64,000 nucleotides of DNA, taken from the NCBI GenBank assembly GCA_036394575.1, contig DASWEY010000019.1:40579-104578 (forward strand), given 5' to 3'. The notes beneath the pieces are model-generated. The model did no database searches. It saw only the letters and a list, made by a program, of their open reading frames with translations, and had not been told where the DNA came from. The position numbers and the translations under genes were made by a program. Each line of letters begins with the position of its first letter. Position 1 is the first letter of the stretch. Shown in pieces: positions 4,850 to 48,092 of the stretch. The stretch comes from Usitatibacteraceae bacterium. GTDB taxonomy: Bacteria; Pseudomonadota; Gammaproteobacteria; Burkholderiales; Usitatibacteraceae.

Positions 4850-5551
4850 TTAAACAGCACCGAGCAAAGGTACTAACTCCTCAATCGAAGAGCCAAAAAC
4901 GACATTCTTGGCGACGTCTCCGCCAGTAACGTGACCAATACAGCGGCGTTTGCTATCAACAATTGGCGCCCCGCTACAGCCTTGAAAAGCATCGTGTCCG
5001 GGATGCTCGACAGGCAAACTAAACGTTAGCTTATGAGCAGATTGCTCAATGAGACGTAAGCCTGGGTAGACGATCGGCTGCCGAAAGAATGTGTTGTCGG
5101 CGTACATCTCCGGACTAATCTTGCCGGAGAATGCAAATACCTCTTTGATATCCGGTTTGACAATCTCTGACGGCATAAAGACATGATTAAGAATTGGTTC
5201 TCCAATCATTCCTCGAGGACCGCGCTCCTGATGAAATGGTTGCAAGTCGATGGCGACACTCGCTGCACTTAGATCAAGCTCCGGTCCATCGATGATTGAG
5301 AACTCATTGGGCCAGTAAAGTTCGTTCTTGCCTTCTATGTTGGGGCCGATGTCGACACACCAATCGACTCCTTTTTGCAGCGAGTGTGCTGCAGTGATCA
5401 AAATGCGCTTCTCTCCTAGATTCAAAAGCCAAGCAGATGCGATGCCAAGCACCTGATCTGTATTACGTTTAATCCTGCAAAGTGGGACACTCGTAGATCC
5501 AACCCACTTCAACCAAGATTGAATCTCCACCGGGTCTACTGGCCCTCCCAT
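4850..5551 (-). CDS. Cytoplasmic trypsin-fold (S1/Trypsin_2-like) serine protease
   Basis: 233 aa. Catalytic-triad motifs are in the canonical order: ILITAAHSL (His56), ELDLSAASV (Asp93), FQGCSGAPIV (Ser193). No signal peptide. The ATG at 5549-5551 directly abuts the stop codon (5552-5554) of the upstream ATPase. Confidence 0.8.
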   Translation of the reverse strand: MGGPVDPVEIQSWLKWVGSTSVPLCRIKRNTDQVLGIASAWLLNLGEKRILITAAHSLQKGVDWCVDIGPNIEGKNELYWPNEFSIIDGPELDLSAASVAIDLQPFHQERGPRGMIGEPILNHVFMPSEIVKPDIKEVFAFSGKISPEMYADNTFFRQPIVYPGLRLIEQSAHKLTFSLPVEHPGHDAFQGCSGAPIVDSKRRCIGHVTGGDVAKNVVFGSSIEELVPLLGAV

Positions 5552-7102
5552 TCAGTTCAATCTCGGCGCAAGCACACTTGCCGCACATCCCGGGCTGGCG
5601 ATCTCAAGGGACTCGACGTACCAGTCGAAAATTTGATCCAGCAGGAACTCGCGACTCTTTCCAGTCTTTGCGTGTAAAGCGTCGCTGAATCTATCTAGAG
5701 ATGTTTTAGCATTGCTGCGTGCAGTTGGGTCATTCGTGCTTCCCACCGATAATGGAAGCGGAACGGACAGTATGCTGTTGTTCGAAAGGGCGTCCATAAG
5801 CAAAACAAGAAAATCATTCCCGCTAATTGCCAACGCGTTTACAACTCCGACCTCTGGGGTTACGGAGAGGAACGCGACGTTTTTCTTTATTTGGTGGTAG
5901 AGCTTTTGAAGGTCGAAATTTGCCTTTGCGGCAGGTTTGATGACTGTTGGCGAAGTAGCAAATCCGGCAGCAGGCGGCGTAGTGAGTGTTGGAGGATCGA
6001 GAGCTTCAATGCAGTCCTGATCCAAGAAGGCCGTAACCCGTGTCTGCGGAGAGAATATTGAGCTGCTTTTGTCCAGGAAGCGCAAAACTGCGTCATACGG
6101 ACCAATTGGCATCACAGCAATTGTGGGGGACGCACTAGAGAGGTTAAGTGTCTTCAATGCATGCCGCAAGGATGACCGAATTAACCGTTCGGCAGCAGCA
6201 TCCTCGACTAGAAGTACAACCTCAGGCCGATGGTCGCTCGTGGGAGCCATACGTCCAAGCGCATACGTTGGATAACATCCGCGAACGCAAACTACCTTCT
6301 TGCCCTGACGCTCCAAAAAAAGTAAATGCTGCCGATCAATAGTGCCTATCAGCGTTGCAGAGTGTGTTGAAAAAACTACTGTGAGGGCTTTTTCCTTTGC
6401 GATTTTCTTAATCTCAGCAAGAAGGCGCTCTTGTGCTAACGGGTGTAAGGCAAGTTCAAGTTCGTCAATAATTGCGAGTGACTTGTCCGGCGCCTTTTCT
6501 AAAGCTCTCAACAGTTTTAGTACAGCCAGTTCTCCTAAACTGAAATTTCGCTCGGAGACATACTCATTTTCTTCGTATTCAATGACAAACGCCTGCTGCC
6601 CTTTTCCTCTTCTAACGTTTACCGTTTTTAGGTCGTCAAATTTTGACGTGCCTAGAATCAAATTGGCCTTGCTGCTAATAAAGTGGGATGCAGGGGTTAT
6701 TTTATTCGGCTTAAAATCTTCCCTTCTAGGCGTTACACGTGCGCCATCGGCAGCGATGTACAACACCTGCGAATAACCAATATTCGCCAACAATGTCGCG
6801 CCGTTTTTCTTTGGTGCGGGTTCCCATCGCACGCCACTGTAGGCGTATGTAACGCTCTGTGTTGGATCAGGCGAAACATACGAAACAGTCGCGCCGATAT
6901 AAATATCAAGTTTCGTGGACGCGTTTGACGTTTTGAAATGCCGAGGGAACGCGTCAGGAATTCCAACCCTTGCGAGGCATGCGAGAAGTGACGTCTTTCC
7001 AGCGCCATTTTCGCCGGTCAGTACATACACACCAGGACCCGGGATTTCGAAATCCAATGCGACAAGATTCTTTACATGGCGAATCTCGATTAACCAGCTC
7101 AC
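5552..7102 (-). CDS. ABC-type (AAA_15/21, OLD-like) ATPase with an uncharacterised C-terminal half containing Toprim/DUF4435-like motifs
   Basis: 516 aa, GTG start. Walker A GENGAGKTS (res 30-38), signature-like FSLGE (187-191), Walker B LAIIDELE (209-216), H-loop FSTHS (244-248). The C-terminal region has EVVLLVEDAAAE (E300) and AFLDQDC (D361/D363). Confidence 0.85.
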   Translation of the reverse strand: MSWLIEIRHVKNLVALDFEIPGPGVYVLTGENGAGKTSLLACLARVGIPDAFPRHFKTSNASTKLDIYIGATVSYVSPDPTQSVTYAYSGVRWEPAPKKNGATLLANIGYSQVLYIAADGARVTPRREDFKPNKITPASHFISSKANLILGTSKFDDLKTVNVRRGKGQQAFVIEYEENEYVSERNFSLGELAVLKLLRALEKAPDKSLAIIDELELALHPLAQERLLAEIKKIAKEKALTVVFSTHSATLIGTIDRQHLLFLERQGKKVVCVRGCYPTYALGRMAPTSDHRPEVVLLVEDAAAERLIRSSLRHALKTLNLSSASPTIAVMPIGPYDAVLRFLDKSSSIFSPQTRVTAFLDQDCIEALDPPTLTTPPAAGFATSPTVIKPAAKANFDLQKLYHQIKKNVAFLSVTPEVGVVNALAISGNDFLVLLMDALSNNSILSVPLPLSVGSTNDPTARSNAKTSLDRFSDALHAKTGKSREFLLDQIFDWYVESLEIASPGCAASVLAPRLN

Positions 7103-44544: not shown

Positions 44545-44880
44545 TCAGGCATCCCCCGCGCCCGCGGAAAAAGTTTCCACGACTTCATAAATCCCCGGCT
44601 CGAACTTCGCGATGGCCAGCGCCTGCTGAAGATACGGCAGGGGAGCAGGATTCTCGCGCATGGCCTGATAATCCGCAACGCTGCGCCATTGCGCGTACAT
44701 CGTGACCTTGGTGCCGTCGAGGCTGCGATGCAGATTGGCGGAAATAAACCCCGGCGCATGGCGCACCGAGGTCTCGGTCGCGCGGGTCAGCAAATCAATG
44801 AGCTGCTGCTGGTTCGCGGGTTCCACGGTAAAGACATTGATGAGGGTTACGAGCTTGTTGTGCTTGGAAATCGTGGGCAT
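44545..44880 (-). CDS. Antibiotic-biosynthesis-monooxygenase (ABM) domain protein
   Basis: 111 aa. VTLINVFTVEPANQQQLIDLL...MYAQWRSVADYQAM. Confidence 0.75.
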   Translation of the reverse strand: MPTISKHNKLVTLINVFTVEPANQQQLIDLLTRATETSVRHAPGFISANLHRSLDGTKVTMYAQWRSVADYQAMRENPAPLPYLQQALAIAKFEPGIYEVVETFSAGAGDA

Positions 44881-45078
44881 GAACGGTTGTGCGAAGTGAT
44901 GGGTTGAGATAGTTCGAGCAATTCTAGTCTTCTGACAGTATGCGCGGGCCGAGCCCGACGACTATCGGGGCGCCGGACAGTTGAGAAATAGTCGACTTTA
45001 ACCATAAAGACTCTTTTTTCCCAAGAAAATTGACTCTGACCATGAGGGTTTCGCTCGTTGATAATTACGTCCTACCTG

Positions 45079-45602: not shown

Positions 45603-46091
45603 TTACATGTTGAAAGAATATCGCGTTTCTTCCCAAGCCTTGTCTGGAAACGATCCATTTACAACACGTCTTTTTTTGAGGTAGCGCCCCTGTTGAAATA
45701 CTAGTTCGGCAGTATAAGCATCTGCGCCATCGCCACCATTCACCAAGAGGACGACATCATTCCCAGATTGGTCCAAAGAGACGTTCATTGGGTTTGCAAG
45801 ATCTGCGTACGCTGAGAACGGAATGTATATCTTTTGCTTCCCGATTCTAATGTCTAGCTTGACAATTGCTGAAGCGGGATGCCCTTGTTCAGCACCCCAC
45901 AGGCTTTGCGAGCCATAAATAGAAAAATTTGGTTTGCTCGCAAGAACGACAATAGAGAATTTTTTGCCACCTTTAAGCTCTATTGCCAATTCGGCACGCC
46001 CATCTTTTAGGGACACCGAGTTGGCACCAAACACCATGCCTGCCTGAAGTAGAAAGACAATAAATGCCCAACAGTAGATTCGTATCATCAT
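45603..46091 (-). CDS. Exported hypothetical protein, candidate immunity protein 1
   Basis: 162 aa. Signal peptide [33 protein letters not shown]...[17 protein letters not shown]...KRRVVN...KAWEETRYS. The ATG overlaps the toxin stop (ATGATGA). Confidence 0.6.
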
Positions 46092-46672
46092 TCGAATACT
46101 TTCAATATTTTGTCTGAACTGCGGTTGATCCTTTTTCGGACATTAAGCGGAAGCACAATACAGCCTGTAGAGGCTGTTTCACACTTACACGAATTATCAC
46201 CGTGAATCTGGAACGAACTGCGACCAAAAGTATTGGTGTCAGGTAATGGCGTCAAGTCCATAATATTTTTACCAGTATTAGGGCTATCTCTCATCGAACC
46301 AATCCGATATTCTCCTTCGGTTAAAGGCCCCGCCGGATTTTGAGGATTACGCGGTTCAGATGCGGACTGCAGTTGCCAAACTGGATTGTTAAGCCCATCT
46401 GCCCTCCCTGAATATCCTTTGTCAGTAATAAAGTCAGCCGCTCCTCCTTCTGGAGGGAAGTACCACAGCGAACCTGAAGACAAGTAGTACTCCCAGTGCA
46501 ATCCGAAGGGGTCTCTTAAGTTCAATGGGCTGCCCTTCACATATGCATATGTATTGACGCCCCCTTTTAACCCAATCGGGTCACTCTGCACATATCGCGC
46601 TGCAGCACTACTGCCATAACCGATTAGCACCAGCATAAGCAAGATCGCTTTGATCAATCTCAGTATTGTCAT
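46088..46672 (-). CDS. Signal peptide + Rhs-core C-terminal tip motif + DUF2778/Tlde1-like (L,D-transpeptidase-fold) toxin domain
   Basis: ORF track 205 aa (to 46705). The better start is M12 (AGGGGA SD), giving [58 protein letters not shown] (Rhs PxxxxDPxGL end motif). This is followed by ...[11 protein letters not shown]...[27 protein letters not shown] (H...GC catalytic pattern of the YkuD/DUF2778 fold). Confidence 0.7.
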
Positions 46673-46685
46673 TCCGCTTCCCCTT

Positions 46686-47717
46686 TCATTGTACTGATTT
46701 AGCATTGTTCACTCGTTGTAAATAATCCCTGTTTGCTGCCTCATCCGGTTCTCGCCAACCAAGCGCCTCAGCCTTCCCTCGCCATTGCCGCATGCCCTGA
46801 TCAAGTTGCATGAAATACGGGCGCTGTTCCTCCGGAATGTCTCTCGGCATCGGGTACTTGTTCACAAAATGCCGCTGCCGTAGGCGGTAGCAGGCCGATG
46901 CGGTATGCAGCATGGCCGGTACATACTTCGGGTAGTGCGCTAACACCAGACTGGCCAAAGCAATGCGGTACTCTTCCTGGCCTTGCTGTCCATACCACTC
47001 CAGCAAGGTGCCTGCCATCACGACAACGGTCTCTTTCTTGGTCAAGGGTTGCATGTAGATGCCATTGGCCAAGGCTTCCGCGGTCATCGGGTTTTGCTGC
47101 TGCACCCAGACGTCCCGCGTGAAGCCGGCGCCGCTGGTAGCTTCCAAATTGAAATAGGTACCCAACTCATCCCGGTATTTGACGAAGATATGCTCCGGCG
47201 CGGTCGATGCGGTTACGTCGATGCCGAGCTTCTGTCCAAGGACGATGAAGAGCAAGGGCATCGACACGCAATTGCCCTTCCGTGTGGCAAGATAGTTAGG
47301 CAACAGCTTGTTGCGAATGTTTTGGCCGAAGGGGTCGTCGAGATCGTAATGGAATGGTCGGTTGGCGTTCCAGGGACCTGCTTGATAAATATACGAACGC
47401 AGCGCATCGAGTTTCTGCCGGCTAGTAGCGCGGGCCGGCAATTGGGATTTGACCTTTGCCGCTATCGCATCGAGTTGCTTGAGATTTTTGGCGATGTCGA
47501 TGCCCGGATCGATCATGTGATCGATGGCCAGCTTTGCTTTCGCGAGATCGATCTGATCGTCCGGCGATTCCAGAATGGCGCGGATCGTTTGAAGATGCGC
47601 GTCCGGCACATGTGTGATGCTCTCCGCATATGCAGCCTGGATAGCTGCCGATAGCGGAAGAAACATGCCCAACAAAAACGATAGTACTAATGAAGTAGGC
47701 GCTGGTAGCGGGCGCAT
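46686..47717 (-). CDS. Exported transglutaminase-like / TPR protein (SirB1-like family)
   Basis: 343 aa. Signal peptide ...[12 protein letters not shown]. Transglutaminase-core-like [19 protein letters not shown] and APEHIFVKY...FNLEAT. Helical TPR-like C-terminus. Confidence 0.65.
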
Positions 47718-48060: not shown

Positions 48061-48092
48061 AAACTGGATACCGGCCTTCGCCGGTATGACAG
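48061..48092 (-). repeat. Family-2 REP hairpin (variant)
   Basis: aaactggataccggccttcgccggtatgacag. Its reverse complement ctGTCATACCGGCGAAGGCCGGTATCCAGTtt aligns with GTCGTCATTCCAGCGGAGGCTGGAATCCAGTCC. Confidence 0.55.

Follow-up and report, generated by a model that had tools for sequence, protein, structure and literature searches.

Rhs toxins are understood as cargo that is locked in a large cocoon of YD repeats, the C-terminal plug of which carries the DPxGL protease. Both DPxGL motifs lie within this plug, which is buried in the barrel, and cleavage just past the second motif requires the aspartate of that motif (PMC8636562). All short matches to Rhs models have been classed by surveys as orphans on the basis of their length (bioRxiv 10.1101/2025.05.08.652813). 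In the 64,000-nt stretch of DNA analysed here (the window, on contig C19 of the Usitatibacteraceae genome G000), a gene on the minus strand encodes a 194-residue precursor in which the end of the Rhs core stands directly behind a predicted Sec-type signal peptide and is followed by a toxin domain. This gene is the second gene of a self-contained operon and no stray orphan tip. The gene directly upstream encodes an exported protein with a transglutaminase-like domain and tetratricopeptide repeats (TPR); it is the key to the system, and this link was absent from the preliminary description of the locus. It is likely that these genes form a compact polymorphic toxin operon without an Rhs shell, that the second of them codes for its toxin, and that the tip of this toxin is recognised by the transglutaminase/TPR partner.

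Like the Rhs effectors of type VI secretion systems (T6SS), WapA and TcC, the protein possessed the identical core end, …RYxQSDPIGLxGGxNxYxYVxxNPxxxxDPxGL, before a variable toxin. The score of the NCBIfam model TIGR03696 (Rhs_assc_core) was 38.7 bits (E 1.1e-9). Because this score exceeds the curated cut-off of 32.5, the similarity to the Rhs tip is not a chance one, and the DPxGL similarity pointed out in the preliminary description holds at the level of profiles. The match covered residues 23-58 and corresponded to model positions 41-76, that is, only 36 of the 76 positions of the core were retained. The two DPxGL motifs, including the PxxxxDPxGL element, were both present, and their aspartates (D31 and D54) were invariant among the long tips. 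A variable toxin with an immunity gene, as in Rhs toxins, completed the likeness. However, unlike Rhs toxins, the protein had no YD-repeat shell. No match to the YD/RHS-repeat families (RHS_repeat, TEN_YD-shell) was found in the 194 residues, and contig C19 contained no RHS_repeat match and no further Rhs-core match. It also differed from Rhs toxins in having an obligate transglutaminase/TPR partner gene and in belonging to a genome without a T6SS. The comparison with orphan Rhs-CT modules was similar in outcome. The downstream immunity gene, the exchange of a block at the core end and a toxin/immunity pair shared with an orphan array were common to both, whereas the gene in the window had its own Shine-Dalgarno sequence, start codon and export signal, and the gene upstream of it was the partner gene and not an rhs gene.

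The gene likely starts at ATG 46672, as taken in the preliminary description, rather than at the farthest ATG (46088..46705), because the Shine-Dalgarno sequence lies 7 nt upstream of the former and all of the 32 aligned homologues start about 25 residues ahead of R-Y. In the N-terminus, a basic n-region preceded a hydrophobic core, and positions -3 to -1 were A-A-A (AAA/R); it is predicted to be a typical Sec presequence, and a helix was placed at residues 2-21 in the AlphaFold2 (AF2) model. Moreover, Ala25 and Arg26 were invariant in the 32 homologues. Across 34 homologous loci, the presequence was 22-28 residues long, the residues at -3/-1 were small (ASA, ALA, AFA and similar), and R-[YF] always came next. 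The anatomy given in the preliminary description, namely a signal peptide, an Rhs tip and a YkuD/Tlde1-like toxin with no shell, was correct by profiles, alignments and the AlphaFold model.

The same architecture was found in many other genomes. A search of species-representative genomes with the partner protein as the sole bait yielded 40 loci, from genera including Thiobacillus, Azoarcus, Piscinibacter, Variovorax, Paracidovorax, Lysobacter, Chitinimonas and Methylophilus. In 34 of these loci, the next gene encoded a presequence, a tip and a variable C-terminus, in the form of a hydrophobic presequence of 22-28 residues, R[YF]xQxDPxGL…DPxGL and then 120-165 unrelated residues. In the reverse direction, each of the seven toxins looked up had a Transglut_core2 gene directly upstream. 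Furthermore, a HMMER profile of the presequence and tip was run against 1.84 billion cluster representatives and matched 87,882 proteins, mostly ordinary Rhs proteins. Among the best 150 matches, at least 129 were proteins of 60-245 residues in which the presequence abutted the tip, with ASA, AFA, VSA, ALA or AAA before the R. The profile had replaced a word search with the N-terminal region, which gave only 32 candidates, mostly ordinary Rhs fragments, and was rejected as a census. The locus in the window had a Transglut_core2 gene directly upstream of the toxin, the AxA/R[YF] junction, and a variable toxin with an immunity-like gene. The distribution of the family was sparse and patchy: of 400 genomes drawn from across the class, 3 carried the partner gene. 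By these comparisons, the cassette is a conserved family that recurs in many Beta- and Gammaproteobacteria. The idea that an orphan tip had gained a signal peptide as a one-off event was contradicted, because the architecture is conserved in a family that has an obligate partner gene of its own.

The C-terminal domains of the cassette toxins were diverse. They matched models of Tlde1, M15 peptidase, ribonuclease, DUF4329, caspase-like and PPPDE domains, while others gave only sub-threshold hints (LHH and GIY-YIG nucleases, a reprolysin-like peptidase) or no match. Many toxin domains of the family are unassigned, and each of these is paired with an immunity gene. The products of the genes downstream of the toxins were exported, membrane or cytosolic proteins, a range that is expected of immunity proteins because the targets of the toxins differ. 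A second cassette was present in the same genome (C81:2293-4482, minus strand, L007), in which the partner of 354 residues was 68% identical to that in the window. Its toxin had the same presequence and tip, its C-terminal domain aligned with an M15-type peptidase toxin (SHHSKGEACD…HWH), and a different exported protein of 174 residues followed.

The conservation of the tip was examined at the level of codons. In 33 cassettes, the median proportion of synonymous differences (pS) in the tip was 0.84, compared with 0.26 for nonsynonymous differences (pN), and the frequency of the major allele was 0.45 at third positions versus about 0.8 at positions 1-2. Since the synonymous sites are saturated and the peptide is conserved, selection acts on the peptide and not merely on DNA homology, which places the tip peptide under purifying selection. 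In the AlphaFold model of the toxin (pLDDT, the predicted local distance difference test, 82), residues 25-53 were without confident structure (pLDDT <50), and the tip on its own is predicted to be disordered. Variant tips, matched by a looser pattern, were found at six loci (L035, L038, L044, L046, L047 and L049). What is the last third of the plug in Rhs proteins would here function without the cocoon, under purifying selection and beside a conserved partner with a cysteine triad.

All cassettes examined had the partner gene directly upstream of the toxin gene. The partner protein gave a Pfam match to Transglut_core2 (E 8e-13) and a weak one to SirB1, and its Cys150, His176 and Glu192 were invariant in 38 homologues. 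In the AF2 model (pLDDT 92), Cys150 lies two residues before the helix 152-163, His176 opens the strand 176-182 and Glu192 closes the strand 188-192, which is a neighbour of the former. The best fold matches of the model were menin, then PNGase and TglA; menin is a scaffold of transglutaminase-like and TPR parts that binds short peptides. A PDB sequence search with the partner profile gave nothing beyond weak matches to designed TPR proteins. The partner thus has Transglut_core2 in common with SirB1/YchA-type proteins and an architecture resembling that of menin. In the cassette partners there is a signal peptide, the catalytic position is a Cys and a DDPxG loop is inserted; the one SirB1-like housekeeping paralogue that was compared (L069) has none of these three features. 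A loop of the partner, …AGPWN…YDLDDPxG…, at residues 109-131 (window 47325-47391), was conserved and itself resembled a YD/DPxG motif.

The tip and the partner varied together. For tips with GGWNRF instead of GGxNTY, all four partners had PDPQxP in place of GPWN. Similarly, for half tips without the first DPIGL, both partners were without both GPWN and the YDLDDPxG loop. This suggests, together with the fold of the partner, that the partner binds or processes the tip, and possibly it cleaves the toxin after DPFGL.

The C-terminal domain of the toxin was compared with known effectors. The Pfam model Tlde1_dom (PF10908) matched the C-terminal 136 residues with 25.1 bits (E 2.5e-5), below the threshold of 30.1. 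The toxin is nevertheless regarded as a divergent relative of Tlde1, because many of its homologues carry PF10908 though its own score is sub-threshold. Gly89, Gly115, Arg151, His157, Gly170, Cys171 and a GPxPxG motif were invariant in 57 aligned homologues. Moreover, free-standing homologues of the domain begin exactly after DPxGL, and in the AlphaFold model the confident domain starts at residue 59. With Foldseek, the best 30 PDB matches of the model were all L,D-transpeptidases. The fold and the catalytic His157 and Cys171 are those of the Tlde1/DUF2778 group, and the domain is, by profile, alignment and model, a divergent Tlde1-like peptidoglycan toxin of the L,D-transpeptidase fold; its target is therefore expected to be periplasmic. 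It resembled the Tlde1/DUF2778 effectors of the T6SS, such as Salmonella Tlde1a (PMC9638812), in its L,D-transpeptidase-like fold, His…Cys pair, periplasmic target and exported immunity protein. However, the motif of Tlde1a is H…SHGC (PMC9638812), whereas that of the cassette toxin is S-T-G-C, and the sub-threshold Pfam score and the added tip and signal peptide are further differences.

A putative immunity function was assigned by homology. The operon opens with the gene of the exported transglutaminase/TPR protein, the toxin gene comes next, and the genes of two exported immunity candidates, paralogues of each other, follow (Table 1). The protein of the third gene had a signal-like segment at its N-terminus. 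In an unrelated classical orphan Rhs array (L055), a Tlde1-like toxin without a signal peptide was 56% identical to the toxin of the window and the closest one found. It was followed by a homologue of the third gene (35% identity over 141 residues, E 2e-28). Because its homologue follows the closest Tlde1-like toxin there, the 162-residue protein is likely the cognate immunity protein of the toxin. The protein of the fourth gene was 33% identical to that of the third over 89 residues (E 1e-13).

Table 1. Positions of the operon genes, the parts of the toxin and the exchanged block in the window.
Feature	Position	Strand	Remark
Gene 1, exported transglutaminase-like/TPR partner, 343 residues	46686..47717	minus	signal peptide of ~31 residues (…AAYA/ES)
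Shine-Dalgarno sequence AGGGGA of the toxin gene	46680-46685	minus	7 nt before ATG 46672; read from the sequence
Toxin gene (gene 2, precursor of 194 residues)	46088-46672	minus	open reading frame reaches 46705 from the farthest ATG
Toxin residues 1-25, predicted Sec-type signal peptide	46598..46672	minus	predicted cut after Ala25
Toxin residues 26-58, Rhs core tip	46499..46597	minus	two DPxGL motifs with a spacing of 18 residues
Toxin residues 59-194, Tlde1-like L,D-transpeptidase-fold domain (His157 … Ser-Thr-Gly-Cys171)	46091..46498	minus	profile, alignment and model
Gene 3, exported candidate cognate immunity protein, 162 residues	45603..46091	minus	ATG overlaps the toxin stop (ATGA)
Gene 4, exported paralogue of gene 3, second immunity candidate, 167 residues	45079..45582	minus	starts 20 nt after gene 3
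Left breakpoint of the exchanged block against L054, approximate	46530..46540	minus	codons 45-47, after NTYAYV, inside the tip
Right edge of the exchanged block, where homology to L054 resumes	44905..44976	minus	blastn 84% over 74 nt

The exchange of toxin and immunity genes was seen in a close relative. A metagenomic contig (L054) was 92% identical to the window over the intergenic region and the partner gene and, within the toxin gene, over codons 1-45, but past codon ~45 it carried an unrelated toxin and immunity gene, after which the homology returned. The identity per 30-nt window was 20-28/30 for codons 1-50 and then 7-11/30, and the blastn alignment stopped at window 46527. The right edge of the swapped block stands before an ABM-type gene (44545-44880). 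In addition, the cassettes share toxin/immunity blocks with Rhs loci, because the toxin and immunity homologues both sit in the orphan array L055. The alignments thus mark the tip as a crossover point for the exchange of toxin/immunity blocks, classical Rhs arrays included. The G+C content was 0.44 between ~45000 and 46400, the region of the toxin and immunity genes, compared with 0.58-0.65 in the flanks.

The preliminary description had also offered a role of the tip independent of the shell, either in docking or as recombination homology. The recombination form is borne out by the 92%-identical relative, which swapped its toxin and immunity genes with a breakpoint inside the tip. The protein form gains support from the purifying selection on the tip and its co-variation with the partner loop; docking would fit these results, which are no proof of it.

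Two further groups of toxins were considered for comparison. In the RHS toxins of the class exported by Sec and type II secretion (T2SS), a transglutaminase domain is fused N-terminally, its triad is lost and RHS repeats come next (Zhang et al. 2012, PMC3482391, section 19). Like these toxins, the cassette combines a signal peptide, a module of the transglutaminase fold and a toxin end of the Rhs type. Unlike them, its transglutaminase is a separate exported protein with invariant Cys, His and Glu, and there are no repeats. The MafA/MafB/MafI system of Neisseria (PMC4287609) is similar by analogy: its Sec-exported polymorphic toxin is conserved in its N-terminal part and variable at its C-terminus, and the toxin gene stands between that of an exported helper, upstream, and that of immunity, downstream. 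However, the conserved part of the cassette toxin is only 33 residues long, the fold of the helper differs from that in the Maf system, and no sequence relation to Maf was found (no DUF1020 match in the profile search). Full-text literature searches gave no description of a cassette of signal peptide, tip and partner.

A possible course of events can be outlined from these results. Sec would export the partner and the toxin to the periplasm, and the immunity protein would neutralise the peptidoglycan toxin there in the producer. After removal of the signal peptide, the unstructured tip may become a handle that is recognised by the transglutaminase/TPR partner. The partner, through its Cys-His-Glu triad, might then clip the toxin free after DPFGL, in place of the aspartyl autoproteolysis that depends on the shell; alternatively, it might hand the toxin on to a route out of the cell. 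The more specific proposal, that the partner is a dedicated sorting or processing enzyme which reads the 33-residue tip as a signal and so replaces the whole Rhs cocoon, is put forward only tentatively. If true, it would represent a hitherto unrecognised route by which Gram-negative bacteria traffic polymorphic toxins independently of the T6SS, and the Rhs pool of toxin/immunity modules could be open to this route in its entirety. TssC/VipB was not found in this 97.5%-complete genome, and from its gene content the cassette is independent of the T6SS, the delivery system of the Tlde1 effectors. TssC was present in 12 of 27 other cassette genomes, and its absences, like those of RHS repeats, are soft because many of these genomes are metagenome-assembled genomes (MAGs).

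Several results weigh against the proposed reading of the cassette. The Tlde1_dom score of the toxin lies under the Pfam gathering score, and Thr stands where the Tlde1a motif has its second His. The cassettes of L044 and L046 have a half tip (presequence and xYVxGNPLSxxDPxGL) with no first DPIGL, so the motif with two aspartates is not universally required. Several members have Glu instead of Gln at position 4 of the tip, and a cross-link by the transglutaminase at this position is disfavoured because of this replacement. Furthermore, the co-variation between tip and partner amounts to two evolutionary events, each of which may be a single clade. No third conserved gene was seen in the cassettes looked up, and no cassette gene accounts for the passage of the outer membrane or the entry into a target cell. 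The results raise the questions of what the DPxGL tip does by itself, and of how a toxin of ~170 residues without a receptor or translocation domain leaves a producer that has no T6SS and reaches the periplasm or cytoplasm of a neighbour. They also raise the question of how many of the "orphan Rhs tips" counted by length are complete exported weapons.

Other explanations were weighed against this one. The tip may be a handle for recombination at the DNA level only, without a function as a peptide, the transglutaminase acting independently, for instance on the envelope to aid release. The crossover inside the tip in L054 and the toxin/immunity pair in common with the classical orphan array are in its favour, but the saturated synonymous sites and variable third positions of the tip, as well as its co-variation with the partner loop, make this unlikely. 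The other rhs tips of this genome were 73-77% identical to the tip of the cassette without long exact runs, for which reason recombination with them was considered unlikely and set aside, and the longest exact run shared with any other cassette tip compared was 20 nt (the C81 paralogue). In a split Rhs system, the exported tip and toxin would dock in trans into a separate cocoon of the Rhs or TcB/TcC type, with the transglutaminase as a loading helper. The tip does belong to a plug inside the barrel of Rhs proteins (PMC8636562), several full-length Rhs proteins with signal peptides are encoded in the genome, and RHS repeats were present in 21 of the 27 cassette genomes. However, the other six had no RHS repeat at all (they are MAGs and may be incomplete), only the 36 positions of the core are kept, and the invariable neighbour is a transglutaminase gene and not rhs. 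In 17 Rhs-rich cassette genomes, no transglutaminase domain was fused to Rhs, and the matches of the partner family were all stand-alone frames of at most 470 residues. Another five Rhs-core matches in this genome extend to the last position of the model and continue into C-terminal sequences of their own; because they sit at contig ends, no assignment to particular shells can be made. Docking in trans is accordingly rated as quite improbable.

The remaining two explanations deny that the gene encodes a weapon. A housekeeping periplasmic enzyme for the remodelling of peptidoglycan, with its regulators, would agree with the peptidoglycan-directed domains of both cassettes of the genome (L,D-transpeptidase-like and M15-like) and with the export of all four operon products. 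It is very improbable in view of other members with a ribonuclease domain or sub-threshold nuclease and protease hints beside cytosolic or membrane immunity-like genes, the swapping of toxin/immunity blocks between near-identical strains, the patchy occurrence across the class and the island-like G+C content of the region. Finally, the gene could be a displaced, decaying and non-functional orphan rhs tip with a fortuitously hydrophobic N-terminus, as the usual length-based binning of short matches and the low G+C content of the region would imply. This is already contradicted and hardly credible: the gene has its own Shine-Dalgarno sequence and ATG, its frame is unbroken and coupled to the next gene, its catalytic residues are intact, there is no rhs gene nearby, and the presequence with the AxA/R junction is conserved in well over 100 distinct clusters. 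The toxin of a shell-less operon whose tip is read by the transglutaminase/TPR partner thus remains the preferred interpretation.

Some loci differed from the common layout. In an Azospira MAG (L032), two tandem genes for toxins with a signal peptide and tip (5015-5560 and 5971-6714) followed one partner gene. A cassette in L058 (1-3998) adjoined P2-like phage genes (portal, Ogr/Delta), which suggests carriage by a prophage, and in L059 (3709-4741) two tandem ankyrin-repeat proteins stood at the position of the immunity gene. In L014, L015, L048 and L051, the partner gene had no recognisable toxin gene downstream; these loci may be remnants or reflect another use of the partner.

Large RHS-repeat genes with signal peptides were found elsewhere in the genome of the window, at C3:914-4549(-), C1:2-3202(-), C1:3206-6283(-) and C53:23199-27017(+), all of them broken at contig ends. 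Two neighbouring or related open reading frames carry an N-terminal motif that may be SpvB/TcB-like. In a scan for promoters and terminators, the sites were no commoner than in shuffled sequences, and the sole useful one was a GC-rich hairpin with a T-run directly downstream of dnaE (window 48068-48087, minus strand). This hairpin is a probable terminator by its sequence, and it separates dnaE from the cassette.

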